From: an uncultured Erysipelotrichaceae bacterium
GTDB lineage: Bacteria; Bacillota_I; Bacilli_A; RF39; UBA660
Length of the DNA: 51,967 nt
Assembly: GCA_902788975.1 (NCBI GenBank)
Contig: CADAMI010000002.1
Coordinates: 1-51,967 of the forward strand
Direction: 5' to 3'
The stretch's first letter is position 1; each line of letters starts with the position of its first letter. The notes below the pieces were generated by a model. The model worked only from the letters and a program-made list of their open reading frames with translations. It was not told the origin of the DNA and searched no databases. Of the stretch, positions 5,705 to 37,802 are shown piece by piece. A program made the translations under genes and the position numbers.

Positions 5705-6112
5705 ATGGATAATCAAAAAGAAATAGTTTACTTATTATCTTTGATGATGGGTATTGGTGGTATGAATAATAATCCTTATAATGACTTCTTAATATTTGGT
5801 GATGAGAAATTATTAAATTATTCAGTTAGCTTAGTTTTAGAAATAGATAATCTTTTAGAGTAAGGATATATGAAAGAAGTGATAACTGAATTAATTAATA
5901 AGAGTAATTTTTGTGAAAATGATTTAGAATTATCTAGTGAAGAAGGAGTTATATTAAAAGAACATGCATATCATATTTTAGATATTAGATATGAATTATT
6001 TATGGAAAGTAAAAAGGAAGAAAAAGTAAAAAAATACTTGTTTAATAAGCAAAAATATGCTAATATAATATTAGTTTTTGAAAGGCGTATAATAGAAGTA
6101 GTAATAAATTGA
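5705..6112 (+). pseudogene. Hypothetical gene split by an in-frame TAA at 5861-5863
   Basis: RBS GGAGG at 5691, ORF 5705..5863 continues in frame (TAA GGA TAT ATG) into 5870..6112. Confidence 0.45.
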
Positions 6113-6298
6113 ATATTTATAGAGAGAATATGGTTGGTGAAAATATTTGATATGAAATTTATGAACTTGTCTATTTAGCTGATTTTTATCCGCAGAAATG
6201 CGTTAAAGTTTAGAGTGTATAACAATAGTTATAAAGTAAGGTGGTACCGCGATTATTCGTCCTTATATTTATAACTATTTTTTTATGAGGAGGATACT
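6110..6298 (+). promoter_or_regulatory. T-box riboswitch leader of leuS (Leu specifier)
   Basis: T-box AAGGTGGTACCGCG at 6238-6251 with CGTCCTT partner; specifier GAA-CTT (Leu) at 6166-6168; stem III TATAAC/GTTATA. Confidence 0.92.
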
Positions 6299-24542: not shown

Positions 24543-24618
24543 GGGCTGTTAGCTCAGTTGGTAGAGCAACTGACTCTTAATCAGTGGGTCTAGGGTTCGA
24601 ATCCCTAACAGCCCACCA
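24543..24618 (+). tRNA. tRNA-Lys(CTT)
   Basis: Cloverleaf GGGCTGT/ACAGCCC, anticodon arm ACTGA-CTCTTAA-TCAGT, TTCGAA T-loop, CCA end. Confidence 0.97.
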
Positions 24619-24694
24619 TTTAATTATTAAATAGTTTTAAAAATGCTTGATATCTCATAAATTATATGATATAATCAATTAGCGAACACAAAAT

Positions 24695-24771
<77 letters not shown>

Positions 24772-24777
24772 TTTTGT

Positions 24778-24854
24778 GGCCCGTTGGTGAAGTGGTTCAA
24801 CACACATGCCTTTCACGCATGCATTCATGGGTTCAAATCCCGTACGGGTCACCA
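24778..24854 (+). tRNA. tRNA-Glu(TTC)
   Basis: Anticodon arm CATGC-CTTTCAC-GCATG, CCA end; terminator at about 24868-24887. Confidence 0.96.
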
Positions 24855-31398: not shown

Positions 31399-33828
31399 GT
31401 GATTAGAATAGAAAAACTTAATAAATATTATAATCGTCATAAGAAAAATCAAATTCATGTCATTAATGATACTTCTTTAGAACTTCCTGATAAAGGATTA
31501 GTCGCTTTACTTGGACCAAGTGGATGCGGTAAAACGACATTACTTAATGCAATAGGTGGTTTGGATAAAGCTAATAATGGTAAGATATTTATTGATGATA
31601 AAAAGATTACGACGTTTAACACTTATAAAAAAGATAAATTACGTAATTTAAAGATAGGATATATCTTTCAAGATTATAAGTTAATTGATAACAAGAGTGT
31701 TTATGATAATGTGGCAATGGTTCTAAGAATGATTGGTATCAAAGATAAAAATGAAGTTAAGAAGAGAGTCGAATATATCTTAGAAAGAGTTGGAATATAT
31801 AGATACCGTTATAGACCTTGTGGGATGCTATCGGGGGGAGAAAGACAGAGAGTTGGTATAGCTAGAGCATTAGTTAAAAATCCTGATATAATTTTGGCAG
31901 ATGAACCAACAGGTAATTTGGATAGTAAAAATACAATTGAAATAATGAATATTATTAAATCAATATCTAAAGATAAACTAGTAATATTAGTAACCCATGA
32001 AGTAGAACTAGCTAAATTTTATGCAACAAGAATCATTGAAGTAGTAGATGGAACTGTTGAAAAAGATTATCAAAATAAAAATAAAGATAATTTAGATTAT
32101 CGAATCGATAATAAGTTTTATCTAAAAGATTTTAAATATCATGAAGAAAATAAAGATAATAATATTAATATAGATATGTATAGTGATACTAAAGAGAAAC
32201 TTAATTTAGTAATAATATTTAAAAATGGTAATTTGTATATTAAGAATAAAGATAATGATAAAGTAGAAGTAATCGATAGTAGTTCTAATATAGAGTTAAT
32301 TAATGATAATTATAAACAATTAGATAAAAGTGTTTATGAAAAATATTCTTTTGATTTTGATAAGATTATCAATAATAATATTAAATTAAAATATTCATCA
32401 ATATTTAATATATTTACAATATTTAGTAATGGTTTTAAAAAAGTATTTGATTATTCTTTTGTAAAAAAATTACTATTAATCGGATTCTTCTTATCATCAT
32501 TATTTGTTACTTATTCAGTAAGTAATTTACTTGGAGTGGCGACAGTTAATGATAAAGATTTTATTAAAACAAATAAGAATTATTTGATGTTAGAAAGCAA
32601 GAAAGTATCAGTGAGTGACTATAATAAATATTCAGAAATGGATGGTATTAATTATATTCTTCCGGGGGATAGTAATGCAAACTTTAATATTGATACGAAG
32701 GGCTACTATCAGACTGAAAACGTAGGACTAATTATTGGTGGATCAATTGCAAGTACTAGTATGATTAGTAAAGATAATTTGGTATATGGAAGAATGCCTG
32801 AAAATGAATATGAAATCGTTATCGATAAAATGACTTATAAGAGAGCAGAGAATATTAAGATGGTCGGTTTATATGATATAGAAAGAATGCTTGATACAAA
32901 AGTTTATTTAGGTAATCATCTTCTTGAATATACAATTGTTGGTATAACTGATTTGGAAAGTCCATCAATATATGTAGATAATAATCAATTTATAAATATT
33001 ATTGATAATAGTTCTAGTGATGGTATGTTTTCATATAGAGAAGAAAGAGCTAATGGCGGTAGTGTATATGATTACACACTATATAAAGATAAGATAAGTA
33101 TTGTTAAAGGACGTACACCAGATAATGATTATGAAGTAATTGTTAATGAAAACTTAAAAGATACTTTTAAATTAGATAAATATATCGATGATTTAAAAGT
33201 TAATGGTGAAAAATTAAAAGTTGTTGGTTATTATACTTCTAGTGATGAAATTAATAGTTATTTTGTAAATACAAATACTAATAAATATGAATTAATTGGT
33301 AATAGTCAAAATTTGGTTATATATGCCAGTGATAAGGATAAAACAATTAGAGATTTTAAAGAACTAGATAGAAAGGTAATCGACGTGTATGATGCTGATA
33401 AAAAGGCTTATTTAAAGGAAAATAAGGAAAGTATGAATGCTAGTTTAATTGTAGCAGCTATTATGTTAGGTATATCTTTAGTTGAAATAATTTTGATGAC
33501 GCGTTCATCATTCTTATCAAGAATTAAAGAAGTAGGTATATATAGAGCTATTGGCGTTAAGAAAAGTGATATATATAAGATGTTTATGGGTGAAGCATTC
33601 GCGATTACAACATTAACAAGTATTCCAGGAGTATTATTTATGGGATACTGTATCAATGTTATTTCGGATATTAAGTATATAAGTAGAAATTATATTATGA
33701 ACTGGGGAGTAATTCTTTTATGTATAGTTATTATATATGTATTTAATATTGTTGTTTCCTTAATACCAGTATTTAACACGATGAGAAAAACACCTGCTCA
33801 AATTCTTGCTAGACATGATTTAGACTAA
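31399..33828 (+). CDS. Fused ABC transporter ATPase/permease (MacB/FtsX-like)
   Basis: GPSGCGKTT, LSGGERQR, ADEPTGNLD, RIKEVGIYRAIG FtsX motif. Confidence 0.92.
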   Translation: MIRIEKLNKYYNRHKKNQIHVINDTSLELPDKGLVALLGPSGCGKTTLLNAIGGLDKANNGKIFIDDKKITTFNTYKKDKLRNLKIGYIFQDYKLIDNKSVYDNVAMVLRMIGIKDKNEVKKRVEYILERVGIYRYRYRPCGMLSGGERQRVGIARALVKNPDIILADEPTGNLDSKNTIEIMNIIKSISKDKLVILVTHEVELAKFYATRIIEVVDGTVEKDYQNKNKDNLDYRIDNKFYLKDFKYHEENKDNNINIDMYSDTKEKLNLVIIFKNGNLYIKNKDNDKVEVIDSSSNIELINDNYKQLDKSVYEKYSFDFDKIINNNIKLKYSSIFNIFTIFSNGFKKVFDYSFVKKLLLIGFFLSSLFVTYSVSNLLGVATVNDKDFIKTNKNYLMLESKKVSVSDYNKYSEMDGINYILPGDSNANFNIDTKGYYQTENVGLIIGGSIASTSMISKDNLVYGRMPENEYEIVIDKMTYKRAENIKMVGLYDIERMLDTKVYLGNHLLEYTIVGITDLESPSIYVDNNQFINIIDNSSSDGMFSYREERANGGSVYDYTLYKDKISIVKGRTPDNDYEVIVNENLKDTFKLDKYIDDLKVNGEKLKVVGYYTSSDEINSYFVNTNTNKYELIGNSQNLVIYASDKDKTIRDFKELDRKVIDVYDADKKAYLKENKESMNASLIVAAIMLGISLVEIILMTRSSFLSRIKEVGIYRAIGVKKSDIYKMFMGEAFAITTLTSIPGVLFMGYCINVISDIKYISRNYIMNWGVILLCIVIIYVFNIVVSLIPVFNTMRKTPAQILARHDLD

Positions 33829-33831
33829 AAT

Positions 33832-33869
33832 AAAATACTAGATTTATAAAAAAGATCTAGTATTTTTTT
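33832..33869 (+). terminator. Terminator after ABC operon
   Basis: AAAATACTAGATTT...AGATCTAGTATTTT plus T run. Confidence 0.8.
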
Positions 33870-33933
33870 AACTATAAGTTAATACATTTGTTTGAATTTA
33901 TTATTGACATTAATAATGATGTTTTGTTATAAT
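33868..33933 (+). promoter_or_regulatory. Repeated element copy 3 fused to promoter of toxin-like locus A
   Basis: 42-nt identity with 4280-4321; TTGACA(33904-33909), 18 nt, TGT-TATAAT(33928-33933). Confidence 0.85.
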
Positions 33934-33996
33934 ATTATTTAGGAATATTTGATAGTTGGGTGATGCCTCCAATCTTAATAGATTGGAGGTGATGCG

Positions 33997-34089
33997 ATGA
34001 GTACCAAAGAATTAAAAAACTTGCTTAATATTTTACTTATCATCGTAATATTACTTATTGCATTACTATTCGTAGTGCTCATGAAATAA
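33997..34089 (+). CDS. Putative type I toxin peptide A (30 aa, single TM)
   Basis: MSTKELKNLLNILLIIVILLIALLFVVLMK; RBS GGAGGTG hidden in hairpin CCTCCAATC/GATTGGAGG; 5'-3' long-range pairing of the transcript. Confidence 0.8.
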   Translation: MSTKELKNLLNILLIIVILLIALLFVVLMK

Positions 34090-34203
34090 AAGATTGCCTA
34101 AATAAGCTTAGTTAGGCAATACCCAAAAAAATATTTTGAGGCATTACTCAACAGCGAAAAGTCAAGTATTCCTCTTTTTTAATATATGAAGTTTCCTTCA
34201 TCT
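34086..34203 (-). ncRNA. Putative antisense antitoxin RNA A
   Basis: Minus-strand promoter TTGTTT(34238-34233)-17-TATAAT(34215-34210); terminator hairpin 34093-34120 followed by U run on minus strand. Confidence 0.65.
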
Positions 34204-34316
34204 ATATACATTATATAATATAATAGATAAAAAAACAAGATTAAAAGTAAGATAAATTATTTAAATGCTCGTAATTTGTTTAAAATAATGGTATAATTAC
34301 TAACGAGGAAGATATT

Positions 34317-36116
34317 ATGGATATAAATAAGATAAGAAATTTCTGTATTATTGCACATATTGATCATGGTAAGAGTACTTTAGCTGATCGTATACTTGAA
34401 TATACGGGTGCGATTGATAAAAGAGAAATGAAAGATCAAATATTAGATAATATGGATTTAGAAAGAGAAAGAGGAATTACAATTAAATTAAATGCAGTTA
34501 GGTTAAATTATAAAGATTATATTCTTAATTTAATTGATACGCCAGGACATGTCGATTTTACTTACGAAGTAAGTAGAAGTATGGCGGCATGTGAAGGGGC
34601 TATTTTAATCGTAGATGCTGCTCAAGGAATTGAAGCTCAAACTCTATCAAATATATATTTAGCAATGGAAAATGATTTAGAGATAATACCAGTTATTAAT
34701 AAAATAGATTTACCTAGTGCTGATATTGAAAAAAGAATAGACGAACTTAATAAGATGTTCGGTTTTAAGAGAGAAGAAATTTTACTTACATCAGCAAAGA
34801 CTGGTGAGGGTATTCCAGAACTGGTTGATGCGATTGTCGAAAGAATTCCTAGTCCGAAAATAGAATATAACGATGAGAAATTAAGATGTTTAATATTTGA
34901 TAGTTATTTTGATTCTTATTTAGGGGTCGTTTCATTAATTAGAGTTGTTAGTGGTAAAGTATCAATGGGTGATAATATTAAGATGTTTACGACGGGTGCT
35001 AATTATGAAGTAACAGAGATAGGTTATCATACTCCAAAAAAAGAAAAAGTTAGTACTTTAAGTGCGGGTGAAGTAGGATTCTTGTCAGCAAGTATAAAAT
35101 CGATTGATAGTGTACGTGTAGGCGATACGATAACATTAAATAATAATCCTTGTTTGGTGGGATTACCTGGTTATAAACAATTGAAACCAATGGTATTTTG
35201 TGGAATATATCCAATTGACAGTAAGAAATATCCTAATTTAAGAGAAGCTTTAGAAAAATTAAAACTAAATGATGCGTCATTATCATTTGAACCCGAGACT
35301 TCACAGACTTTAGGTTTTGGCTTTAGAACTGGTTTTTTAGGATTGCTTCATTTAGATATTATTACGGAACGTATTGAAAGAGAATTTGGGGTAGATATTA
35401 TTGCCACAGCTCCATCGGTTATTTATGAAATAACCTTAACTGATGGAAGTGTAATCTATGTTGATAATCCATCAGAATTTCCACCTAAGGTAAGAATTAG
35501 TATGATAAAAGAACCATACATTAGAACTAATATCTATGTACCAAATGAATATATTGGTTCTATAATGGAACTTTGTCAAGATAAAAGAGGAACTTATATA
35601 AATACTGACTATATTGATACGACTAGAGTAAATATTCATTATGAGATACCTTTATCAGAAATCGTATATGATTTTTTTGATAAACTTAAGAGTTATACGA
35701 AGGGATATGCCTCTTTTGACTATGAGATAATTGGTTATAAGATAAGTGATCTTGTTAAGATGGATGTTATGTTAAATGGGGAAATTGTCGATGCATTATC
35801 AGTTATAGTTCATAAAGATTTTGCTTATAAGAGAGGAAGAGTAATTGTCGATAATTTAAAAGAAATTATTCCTAGACAATTATTTGAAGTACCAGTCCAA
35901 GCGGTAATTGGTAGTAAAGTAATTGCTCGTAGTGATATAAAAGCGATGAGAAAAGATGTCTTAGCTAAATGTTATGGTGGCGATATTACTAGAAAAAGAA
36001 AACTTTTGGAAAAACAAAAAGAAGGTAAGAAAAAAATGAAGACTATCGGTAAAGTAGATATACCTAAAGAAGCCTTCTTATCAGTATTAAAAGCAACAGA
36101 AATTAAGAAAGATTAA
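34317..36116 (+). CDS. lepA: Elongation factor 4
   Basis: [50 protein letters not shown]. Confidence 0.98.
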
Positions 36117-36150: not shown

Positions 36151-36204
36151 TAATACATTTGTTTGATTTTATTATTGACTTTTCATTAATGCGTTTGATA
36201 TAAT
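36150..36204 (+). promoter_or_regulatory. Repeated element copy 4 (left palindrome arm missing) fused to promoter of toxin-like locus B
   Basis: TTAATACATTTGTTTGATTTTATTA-TTGACT(36175-36180), 18 nt, TGA-TATAAT(36199-36204). Confidence 0.8.
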
Positions 36205-36274
36205 TATATTGGAACATTTAGTGTGAGTGTCTGCCTTGAGTCGTTCTTACGAATAGATTGGAGGCTTGGTCAAT

Positions 36275-36367
36275 ATGAAAAAACGTGAATACAATATCAG
36301 GTTTTTAAGGTATATTTCGATCATTTTATTTCTGATTATCATTTTGATAATTGTTATAAAAAAATGA
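36275..36367 (+). CDS. Putative type I toxin peptide B (30 aa, single TM)
   Basis: MKKREYNIRFLRYISIILFLIIILIIVIKK; RBS GGAGG in hairpin; same RNA architecture as locus A. Confidence 0.8.
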   Translation: MKKREYNIRFLRYISIILFLIIILIIVIKK

Positions 36368-36484
36368 CATCCACTTTACTATGGATGTCCCCGTTTTATG
36401 CCATATGGCATTTAATTAGGTAGGCATTCACAAGGAAAACTGAATGTTCCACCTTTTTTAATATATGCAAGAACTCTTGCTTAC
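36358..36484 (-). ncRNA. Putative antisense antitoxin RNA B
   Basis: Minus-strand promoter TTGACA(36519-36514)-17-TATATT(36496-36491) with extended TG; terminator GACATCCA/TGGATGTC (36366-36389) plus U run on minus strand. Confidence 0.7.
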
Positions 36485-36578
36485 ATACTTAATATAGCAT
36501 ATTTATATTTTATTGTCAAAAGATTATTTACATATTTATAGATGATGATATAATAATTAATAATTATTGGGGGTAGTT

Positions 36579-37802
36579 ATGCATAATGTTGATGAAATGA
36601 AATTATATGAATTATATTATATCGTATATGTTTATAGTATATATGAAGATGATGATATTGTTCCTTATGATATGGAATATGTATGGCATAAAATTAATGA
36701 TTATTATTACCAAGAAAATGATATATTATTAGATATCAATAAAGAAGATGATAGAAGTATTTTATTTAATTGGATGAAAGAGAAATGTAGATATCAATTA
36801 CTAGATGAATTAATGGTTCATATGTTTAATAGATTTATTAATATAGAAGATAATGGCATAGATAATCGAGATGAATTCTTTATTAATAATATAGATATGA
36901 TGGAAAAAATTATGGGTACTGGTAATTATGATATGAAAATGGATGATAAAAATATATCGGAATTAAGTAAAGATAAAGTAATTACTTTAGTAAAAGAGAT
37001 ACTTTTAGAAATTGATCCATCTAGTGAATGGTTAAGAATATATGAAGAAGCCATTGATAAGAATAAAATTATTTATTTAAATGAATTAGATAAAAAAGGG
37101 ATAATTGATTTAAAGAAAGAATTAGTCGTTGATTCATTAAAATATATTGATAACTCTTGTTTGACTCTTGAGAATGGTGAGAAATATATATTCTTAAATT
37201 ATAAAGGGGATATTAGTGATGTATCTACGACAATTCATGAATTTACTCATTATGTTAGTAAATATAATCATAATGAAAAAGAGTCACCAATATTACGAGA
37301 ATTTCCAGCCATATTTTTTGAATTATATGCATTAGATTATTTAAAAGAAATAGGTTATGATGAAAATGATATAAAATTAGTTAATCAACATAGAGTAGCT
37401 GATACTTATATGGCAACGATGGAATCAAGAATATTTATTTATTATTTAAAAACGATAATGAATAATGGGGTAATTAATGAAGAAATAGACAGAGAATTAA
37501 TTAGAGATAAATATTATTTGTTTAATGATGTAAGAAAAAATTGTGATAATTGTATTAGAGATTTAATAATTAATCCGTATGCATTTTTTGAAATATATCC
37601 ATATGTTATTGGTAATTATTTAGCAGATAATGCTATAATAAAACTAAAAAATGATAGACAATTATTAGGGTTTATAAAATATATGAATGATAATTTATAT
37701 AGGATAAATCCATATGATGTATTTAATATCCTTGGTTGTGGAGATGTTGATTTAGTAAATACCAATGAAGAAAAACAAAAAGTAAAAAAAAGAAATAAAT
37801 AG
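36579..37802 (+). CDS. Hypothetical HExxH protein (M3 peptidase-like motif)
   Basis: TTIHEFTH...LREFPAIFFE...YPYVIG; basic C-terminal tail. Confidence 0.6.
   Translation: MHNVDEMKLYELYYIVYVYSIYEDDDIVPYDMEYVWHKINDYYYQENDILLDINKEDDRSILFNWMKEKCRYQLLDELMVHMFNRFINIEDNGIDNRDEFFINNIDMMEKIMGTGNYDMKMDDKNISELSKDKVITLVKEILLEIDPSSEWLRIYEEAIDKNKIIYLNELDKKGIIDLKKELVVDSLKYIDNSCLTLENGEKYIFLNYKGDISDVSTTIHEFTHYVSKYNHNEKESPILREFPAIFFELYALDYLKEIGYDENDIKLVNQHRVADTYMATMESRIFIYYLKTIMNNGVINEEIDRELIRDKYYLFNDVRKNCDNCIRDLIINPYAFFEIYPYVIGNYLADNAIIKLKNDRQLLGFIKYMNDNLYRINPYDVFNILGCGDVDLVNTNEEKQKVKKRNK

Follow-up and report, generated by a model that had tools for sequence, protein, structure and literature searches.

What is the short locus that lies between an ABC-transporter operon and lepA in the genome of an uncultured Erysipelotrichaceae bacterium, and could the small hydrophobic peptide that it encodes be a toxin held in check by an antisense RNA? 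The window is the whole stretch of 51,967 nucleotides (nt) of contig CADAMI010000002.1 (assembly GCA_902788975.1), and the locus occupies about positions 33904-34238. The initial annotation had interpreted it as a type I toxin-antitoxin-like locus. This interpretation is well supported on grounds of sequence and structure, namely multicopy and tandem occurrence, selection on the peptide, covariation between the 5' and 3' ends of the message, the elements of an antisense gene and remnants without a toxin. The locus is probably, at about three chances in four, one copy of a previously undescribed multicopy family of toxin-antitoxin systems belonging to type I.

The predicted toxin gene comprises the following elements, with positions counted in the window:

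33904-33933, forward strand: toxin mRNA promoter, with the -35 box TTGACA at 33904-33909, an 18-nt spacer, TGn at 33925-33927 and the -10 box TATAAT at 33928-33933.
33941-33969, forward strand: 5' arms of the mRNA, arm 1 at 33941-33952 and arm 2 at 33955-33969, both of which pair with the 3' end.
Last bases of 33941-33969 (GCCTC), forward strand: strand opposing the Shine-Dalgarno sequence (anti-SD strand), overlapping the end of the 5' arms.
33966-33989, forward strand: Shine-Dalgarno (SD) hairpin, CCTCCAATCT and AGATTGGAGG around the loop TAAT, with the SD GGAGG at 33985-33989.
33997-34089, forward strand: putative toxin open reading frame (ORF) for a hydrophobic peptide of 30 amino acids (aa), MSTKELKNLLNILLIIVILLIALLFVVLMK.
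34094-34119, no strand assigned: post-stop hairpin, TTGCCTAA, a 10-nt loop and TTAGGCAA, with arms at 34094-34101 and 34112-34119; predicted antisense terminator.
34138-34180, forward strand: 3' arms of the mRNA, arm 2' at 34138-34152 and arm 1' at 34162-34173, with a T-run at 34175-34180.

The promoter matches the consensus at 12 of 12 positions in a consensus promoter scan, with TG at 33925-33926. Promoter-like sites in 33750-34350 number five, against 5.0 +/- 2.2 in shuffled sequences, which is chance level; the promoter is unusual by the quality of the site only and not by the local number of sites. Transcription would start at about 33940-33941 and give an mRNA of about 240 nt (~33941-34180). 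Within it, CCTCCAATC (33966-33974) is complementary to GATTGGAGG (33981-33989), the SD being the 3' strand of this hairpin. The strong promoter, the hydrophobic peptide of 30 aa and the hairpin that locks the ribosome-binding site had all been proposed beforehand, and each was recovered here at 33904-33933, 33997-34089 and 33966-33974/33981-33989, respectively.

Is the locus unique? The genome that carries it (1.23 Mb in 72 contigs, 70.6% complete) contains several copies identified by BLAST, and a profile built from 103 relatives identified 10 full-length members and one truncated member, or about one copy of the family per 120 kb:

Contigs C20, C45, C49, C7, C28, C38, C24 and C16, and window positions 33913-34248 and 36185-36532: full-length copies in the own genome, from the profile search.
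Contig C62, positions 195-419 (L005): truncated copy in the own genome, 3' half only.

DNA matches were identified in 16 of 41 related genomes, the own genome counted. Without it, matches were present in 11 of the 13 genomes of the genus and 14 of the 24 of the family; among other families a single genome of 16 was matched, over 23 nt at E 8e-4, and this was taken as chance. A 23-nt motif from the most conserved block was found in at least 119 stretches of public species genomes. An nhmmer search over 147 loci gave 169 hits, 123 of them near full length, from which 103 distinct full-length members were obtained. In a sample of the order, 52 of 401 genomes, from 36 of 145 genera, carry the motif with at most one mismatch; a single genome has at most 8 copies, and the reversed-pattern control gave only 2 hits. 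This count is below the true extent of the family, as members with a variant stem-loop (in genomes G017 and G024, and the second window copy) escape the motif.

The carrier records are titled as uncultured Bacilli, Tenericutes, Mollicutes and Erysipelotrichaceae, Candidatus Coprosoma, Candidatus Ventrenecus, Mycoplasma sp. CAG:611 and Coprobacillus sp. CAG:605, with a few Muribaculaceae or Clostridium, and the metagenome-assembled genomes among them come from the gut of cattle, sheep, chicken, rabbit, mouse and human. The Muribaculaceae titles belong to seven loci (L042, L064, L069, L076, L086, L093 and L105) and the Clostridium title to one (L104), the other carriers being of Bacilli type; these records may be mislabelled or mixed bins.

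The copies are also found side by side. Genome G011 contains three in tandem with a period of 358 nt, which is one unit length (L021, G011:C3, ~184235-185083), and arrays of two or three copies occur at six more loci (L015, L068, L107, L134, L137 and L147). Two remnants, C62:195-419 and L016:1485-1646 (genome G006), keep the post-stop hairpin, the 3' arms and the antisense gene and are without the toxin promoter and the 5' part; the one of G006 lies at the same ABC-transporter/lepA junction as the window copy. These 3' halves may be orphan antitoxins or decaying loci, and remnants with only the antisense gene fit a toxin that is lost first.

Is the peptide really encoded? Under a strict rule, which asks for an SD motif from a list, a start codon 2-12 nt further on and a hydrophobic fraction of at least 0.55, an SD-preceded hydrophobic ORF of 23-38 aa was identified in 82 of the 103 members, giving 71 distinct peptides. 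The remaining 21 mostly have an SD of the AAGGTGGTGAT type, absent from the list of the rule, followed by a similar ORF; a few of them look frame-shifted or had their start misassigned by the rule. Typical peptides are MSKKDFLISSLIIIILLLIGLLFVTLK, MNKKDFLILSLVIIIFLLLLLLFIVLI and MKKRDFIIKVLRYIAIILFLLIILIVVIKK, in which the N-terminus is short and charged and the rest, up to the C-terminus, is a hydrophobic run of about 20 residues. Over 163 pairs of peptide ORFs of the same length, pairs which are not independent, pN/pS is 0.19. Between the ORF of the window copy and that of contig C7 there are 5 synonymous and 0 non-synonymous changes. The entropy at codon positions 1, 2 and 3 is 0.90, 0.51 and 1.09 (28 distinct ORFs of 27 codons), so that variability follows the order 3 > 1 > 2. 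These patterns argue that the small hydrophobic ORF is a real coding sequence under purifying selection. Its product also has the format of the type I class, which is a small (<60 aa) hydrophobic protein on a short mRNA (30 aa here, 23-38 aa in the family).

The same figures bear on the view that the unit is a repeated, structured non-coding element of intergenic regions, such as a selfish repeat or a terminator or insulator cassette, in which the ORF is incidental. A multicopy unit of about 350 nt placed between genes, conserved for about 30 nt upstream of the -35 box and carrying terminator-like hairpins on both strands, is what such an element could look like. Against this, the ORF and its SD are kept although the DNA of the members averages only about 56% identity, the substitution ratio and the codon-position order are those given above, and two conserved promoters face each other; neither terminal inverted repeats nor a transposase were seen, and no copy was identified in plasmid or phage collections (blastn) or in viral contigs (motif). 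A non-coding element is therefore very unlikely.

The shape of the peptide, short and hydrophobic with a cationic N-terminus, would also suit a secreted or signalling product (a leaderless bacteriocin or a pheromone) whose mRNA is structured by accident. Genes for immunity, transport or processing are absent from the loci seen, the neighbours of the self-contained units change from copy to copy, and the hydrophobic run of about 20 residues extends to the C-terminus as in type I toxins inserted in the membrane. A dedicated and conserved antisense RNA is not known at bacteriocin loci. This origin of the peptide is the hardest of all to credit.

With a toxin gene of a type I system still the preferred interpretation, the next question is whether its message is folded under selection. 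As had been proposed, 33941-33952 is complementary to 34162-34173 and 33955-33969 to 34138-34152, G-U pairs included, and both end-to-end helices are contained in the minimum free energy fold of 33941-34182 (-76 kcal/mol, z = -8.18, with 0 of 200 shuffles as good). Across the family, clustering at 85% identity gave 70 representatives, of which 44 were aligned (alignment A3); the 23 lowest-scoring representatives and L081, L044:719 and L055 were left out for the reliability of the alignment. RNAalifold on these 44 sequences identified the end-to-end pairing (columns 3-13/295-305 and 19-24/277-282), the post-stop hairpin (columns 196-202/227-233), an invariant stem-loop (columns 322-337) and two pairs joining the CC of the anti-SD strand to the GG of the SD. 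The share of paired cells in this alignment is 95.9%, where shuffles reach 89.2% and slid partners 37-44%, and 117 cells are changed on both sides, against 34.3 in shuffles, none of 500 reaching the observed value. Compensatory changes were identified in 9 of the 11 pairs of end-to-end helix 1, 4 of the 6 of helix 2 and all 7 of the post-stop hairpin.

The long-range helices are rich in G-U pairs, with column pair 21/280 being G-U in 29 sequences, and the fold therefore belongs to the plus-strand RNA, as these pairs would be A-C mismatches on the opposite strand. The end-to-end helix extends into columns 28-31/272-275 (84.1% paired, 4 of 4 pairs compensatory), where the CC of columns 30-31 pairs either with the GG of the SD (92% of cells) or with the 3' arm (84% of cells). 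The competition of the end pairing for the anti-SD strand, which the initial annotation had read from the window, is in this way found family-wide, the same CC being common to both pairings. The covariation argues that the RNA structure is under selection.

Is there a gene for the antisense RNA? Its predicted elements are as follows:

34210-34238, reverse strand: antisense promoter, with the -35 box TTGTTT at 34238-34233, a 17-nt spacer and the -10 box TATAAT at 34215-34210; the start would lie at about 34203.
34186-34201, reverse strand: antisense 5' stem-loop AUGAAG-GAAA-CUUCAU, near-invariant in the family.
About 34086-34203, reverse strand: predicted RNA of the antisense gene, about 118 nt long and the putative antitoxin, with ends inferred from the sequence.

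On the minus strand the hairpin 34119-34094 is followed by TCTTTTATTT, with a T-run at 34093-34084. The predicted RNA folds at -31.2 kcal/mol (z = -3.76) and has its complement in the mRNA between the stop codon and the 3' end, an overlap of about 95 nt (~34086-34180).

Both promoters are kept in the family. For the mRNA promoter, the 99 members with enough upstream sequence show a -10-like hexamer in 98 (TATAAT in 58), TGn in 67 and a -35 box starting with TTG in 66. For the antisense promoter, a -10-like hexamer lies 6-12 nt before the stem-loop in 101 of 103 members, and a -35 box starting with TTG is placed at 16-18 nt in 90 of 103, the spacer being 17 nt in 89 of 101. The rest of the antisense -35 box is variable, as expected of a promoter and unlike a frozen repeat. 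The post-stop hairpin begins a median of 5 nt past the stop codon. Of 82 members, 70 have a T-tail (at least 6 T in 10) behind it on the minus strand and 1 has such a tail on the plus strand, which indicates that this hairpin terminates the antisense RNA and not the mRNA. The loop of the 5' stem-loop is a GNRA tetraloop on the minus strand and UUUC on the plus strand. Among 18 sequences obtained through similarity and not through the motif, the stem-loop is exact in 15, has two changes in one and is a stem-keeping variant in two; the variants are compensatory, and the second window copy has GCAAG...CTTGC. A conserved promoter, the 5' stem-loop and a strand-specific terminator thus define a gene for a predicted antisense transcript. 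The convergent promoter and the terminator proposed for an RNA of about 118 nt are present at the positions listed and conserved in the family, the transcript itself being a prediction.

Could the product be harmless? A small membrane protein under cis-antisense control, of which the folds and the antisense RNA only tune the level, would account for much of the above, as the evidence is of sequence and structure and is silent on toxicity. The peptides also show some sub-threshold matches to models of small membrane proteins, to the Ecr family (E 0.026), MgtR (E 0.13), MacP (E 0.13) and YncL (score 0.78, ESM Atlas). These matches are all far under the cut-offs and show only the generic look of a single transmembrane helix. 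At least 10 diverged copies in about 1.2 Mb, tandem arrays and antisense-only remnants typify type I toxin-antitoxin systems and are unusual for a housekeeping small protein, and a 12/12 promoter combined with several layers of translational silencing fits a product that is not to be made freely. A harmless protein is thus unlikely, without being as improbable as the two alternatives above.

The search for a known family around the putative toxin-antitoxin system gave the same result for the RNA and for the peptide. The covariance models of Rfam, a database in which 13 type I antitoxin RNA families are counted in passages of PMC8594479, gave no match at the locus at gathering thresholds, and at E up to 10 only three chance-level hits (E 5.5-9.1; two snoRNA families and ncr1241). 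Thirty family peptides compared with Pfam and NCBIfam at E up to 1 gave no toxin-family hit and only the sub-threshold membrane-segment matches, and the best score in the ESM Atlas was 0.78. Ten peptides looked up exactly in a collection of about 15 billion proteins were all absent; evidently, gene callers do not call the peptides of this family. No description of the family was found in the literature searched on type I systems, and the supplementary tables of Fozo et al. 2010 and of T1TAdb may contain related ORFs. The peptide had been annotated as belonging to no recognised family, and the models of Rfam, Pfam and NCBIfam agree.

How would the locus work? A strong promoter of the sigma-70 type would produce the mRNA of about 240 nt for a 30-aa membrane peptide with a single helix, and this message would be kept closed by the local SD hairpin and by about 26 bp of pairing between its 5' and 3' ends. 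The 3' arms would first form the mRNA terminator and then swap partners to build the end-to-end lock. From the convergent promoter an antisense RNA of about 118 nt would be transcribed, with a GAAA-capped 5' stem-loop and a terminator just past the toxin stop codon. By analogy with SR4, SR5, SR6 and RatA (passages of PMC5848175), its duplex of about 95 bp with the 3' untranslated region (UTR) of the mRNA would be cut by RNase III and the message degraded; a gene for RNase III was identified in the own genome (229.6 bits, cut-off 166). Capture of the 3' arms by the antisense RNA would also free the 5' arm, and its GCC(UC) would complete the anti-SD hairpin and close the ribosome site further.

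In models of 82 members the probability of the lock averages 0.96 and the median probability of an unpaired SD is 0.14. With the 3' UTR blocked the median is 0.06 (Wilcoxon p 0.007, on related sequences), and in a form with only the 5' UTR and the ORF it is 0.08, the 3' end being removed without opening of the SD. The modelled closure on blocking of the 3' UTR is a small effect, in the same direction as the second function of SR4.

When the 3' segment was folded alone, a hairpin was found right before the U-run in 44 of 44 members, with energies of -2.3 to -14.0 kcal/mol, weak in a few members. This hairpin is formed by arm 2' paired with arm 1', a helix that is 82.9% paired with 8 of 10 pairs compensatory. 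Because both use the same two 3' arms, the terminator and the end-to-end lock are mutually exclusive.

An unexpected third pairing joins arm 2 (columns 18-25) to columns 196-203, which are the 5' half of the post-stop hairpin; it is 93.9% paired, and compensatory changes were identified in 6 of its 8 pairs. Columns 25/196 vary four ways (AU 14, CG 10, UA 8, GC 7), and the end-to-end lock offers no consistent partner to column 25, which forms an A-A or C-A mismatch there in the members inspected. The specificity of each pairing was measured by partner swapping, as the duplex energy of a segment with its own partner against that with the partner from another member. Cognate and swapped energies are -11.1 and -7.3 kcal/mol for arm 2 with the hairpin 5' half, -12.4 and -8.4 for arm 1 with arm 1', -14.6 and -9.1 for arm 2 with arm 2', and -10.0 and -6.0 for the two halves of the post-stop hairpin; nine other combinations of segments differ by 0 to 1.7 kcal/mol. 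Cognate-specific covariation is found in all three competing pairings. A metastable local 5' hairpin of arm 1 with arm 2 was rejected (cognate -3.7, swapped -3.5 kcal/mol).

The third pairing, for all the cognate-specific covariation in the aligned members, is explained by no current model. It may form inside the mRNA, or arm 2 of the mRNA may pair with the terminator stem of the antisense RNA, which has the identical sequence. A tentative proposal, to be held at somewhat less than even odds, is that the mRNA is a three-state device made of six related segments, three of one kind and three complements. The three states may be the terminator hairpin, the 5'-3' lock together with the post-stop hairpin, and arm 2 paired with the hairpin 5' half. 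The antisense RNA, which bears copies of the 5' arms of the mRNA, would in such a device mimic the 5' end and capture its 3' partner, and its terminator stem may in addition serve it to dock on arm 2.

Several observations weigh against the type I interpretation or limit the evidence given for it. The SD is predicted closed in every modelled state, with 5'-end processing one possible route to translation; the drop from 0.14 to 0.06 is small and comes from related, non-independent sequences. Most sequences of alignment A3 were found via the 23-nt motif, whose conservation there is partly by construction, and the shuffle controls ignore the relatedness of the sequences. The window antisense promoter is not listed by the consensus scan, with only 3 of 6 matches in its -35 box, and the rules of that scan give no terminator-like site at the locus; the antisense promoter and terminator therefore rest on conservation in the family and not on the window alone. 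Neither the patchy distribution (52 genomes of 401 have the marker) nor the chromosomal position of the copies indicates a specific role.

The expression signal is of the same kind. DNA of the window was found in 20 sequencing runs from 9 bovine and sheep gut studies, with one of these runs recorded as RNA. The RNA-Seq run X18 contains a single unstranded contig of 213 nt that falls entirely within 33955-34172 and departs from it at 14 letters and by 7 gaps, differences by which it comes from a relative or a paralogue. A DNA run (X1) likewise breaks into contigs of 90-168 nt inside the repeated locus. Four runs were inspected, two of them (X19 and X20) probably DNA, and their contigs carry neither strand nor transcript ends.

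Which of the known type I systems does the locus resemble? Among the Gram-positive systems the same layout is found in bsrG/SR4 and bsrE/SR5 of Bacillus subtilis, bsrG/SR4 being the nearest; the likeness is one of layout and not of homology. According to passages of PMC5848175, SR4 recruits RNase III and alters the fold around the ribosome site of bsrG, and the CC common to the 3' arm and SD pairings would give the present locus a plausible route to the second of these effects. Peptides of the present family have 23-38 aa against 38 aa for BsrG. Unlike bsrG/SR4, the present mRNA is predicted to pair its two ends with each other, its 3' arms also making up the terminator. The family has many copies, which are chromosomal and not prophage-borne as bsrG, with none identified in the phage and viral collections searched.

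The toxins of txpA/RatA and yonT/SR6, also of B. subtilis, are about twice as long as the present peptides, TxpA having 59 aa. YonT has 58 aa in the account of PMC5848175, and T1TAdb places both systems among Gram-positive families with the antisense RNA on the 3' side (passages of PMC8594479). Unlike in these two, the predicted antisense RNA barely reaches the ORF, and only its U-tail covers the stop region. For bsrG/SR4, bsrE/SR5, txpA/RatA and yonT/SR6 there was no match in Rfam, Pfam or NCBIfam, a comparison made by family models and not by direct alignment.

The end-to-end lock resembles those of hok (plasmid R1) and aapA1 (Helicobacter pylori), and AapA1 also has 30 aa. Closure of the hok mRNA involves pairing of the 5' and 3' ends. 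The full-length aapA1 mRNA is described in PMC5416894 as translationally closed by its own fold. The mRNA of hok/Sok and aapA1/IsoA1 is processed at its 3' end, by a trimming that opens the SD, and the antisense RNA is directed at its 5' or translation-initiation region; unlike in them, the present antisense RNA would cover the 3' UTR, and in the model the SD is more closed when the 3' UTR is removed or blocked. The hosts of hok and aapA1 belong to another phylum, and no sequence similarity to the present family exists.

A hydrophobic Gram-positive toxin of about 30 aa, an SD in a 5' stem-loop and a convergent small RNA are likewise found in Fst/RNAII (par of pAD1) and SprA1/SprA1as. Models for Fst are held in Pfam and NCBIfam, and none matched the 30 family peptides at E up to 1. 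The charge orientation of Fst is opposite, as the present peptide has a charged N-terminus and a hydrophobic C-terminus. The two RNAs of the Fst/RNAII family share a bidirectional terminator and interact outside the overlap (passages of PMC8594479). Unlike in that family, the antisense terminator would act on the minus strand only (T-tail in 70 against 1 of 82 members), and the mRNA would read through it to its own terminator about 60 nt beyond. By these comparisons the locus belongs to none of the families considered. The type I layout is already known; what appears to be new is the family itself, the end-to-end lock added to a 3'-overlap layout and the third pairing.

The second window copy lies at 36185-36532 on the forward strand, just downstream of lepA, is more diverged and leaves lepA flanked by two copies. 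It comprises the following elements:

36275-36367, forward strand: ORF of its mRNA gene, with a TTGACT promoter, TGn and a TATAAT -10 box, encoding the peptide MKKREYNIRFLRYISIILFLIIILIIVIKK.
36366-36391, forward strand: its post-stop hairpin, the 3' arms and T-run ending at about 36459.
36518-36513, reverse strand: TTGACA of its antisense promoter.

About 25-30 nt located 5' of the -35 box (33880-33903 and 36152-36175; TAATACATTTGTTTGA.TTTATTATTGAC) are common to both window copies and those on contigs C7, C28 and C49; it is possibly an UP-like element, or else the duplicated unit has its left edge here. Conserved synteny was considered and dropped, as lepA is nearby at only two other loci. 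An ORF of 411 aa follows the second copy at 36567-37802 on the forward strand. Unrelated Rfam matches in the window are a T-box leader (105.7 bits) and three tRNA genes (6079-6267 and 24543-24851, both on the forward strand).

The family, a putative RNA-controlled module, is abundant in Bacilli of the gut that are known almost only from metagenome-assembled genomes, a lineage unsurveyed for such systems. Its roughly 100 diverged members form a comparative set with strong covariation and a natural system for the study of sequential RNA folding, and they can seed a covariance model for annotation. The family also offers compact regulatory parts that need no added protein factor, and its peptides are candidate membrane-active agents. 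The three-state device, if true, would give type I systems a regulatory logic that is new, and the family would then be the RNA-controlled killer module that dominates in an entire order of small-genome uncultured gut Bacilli.

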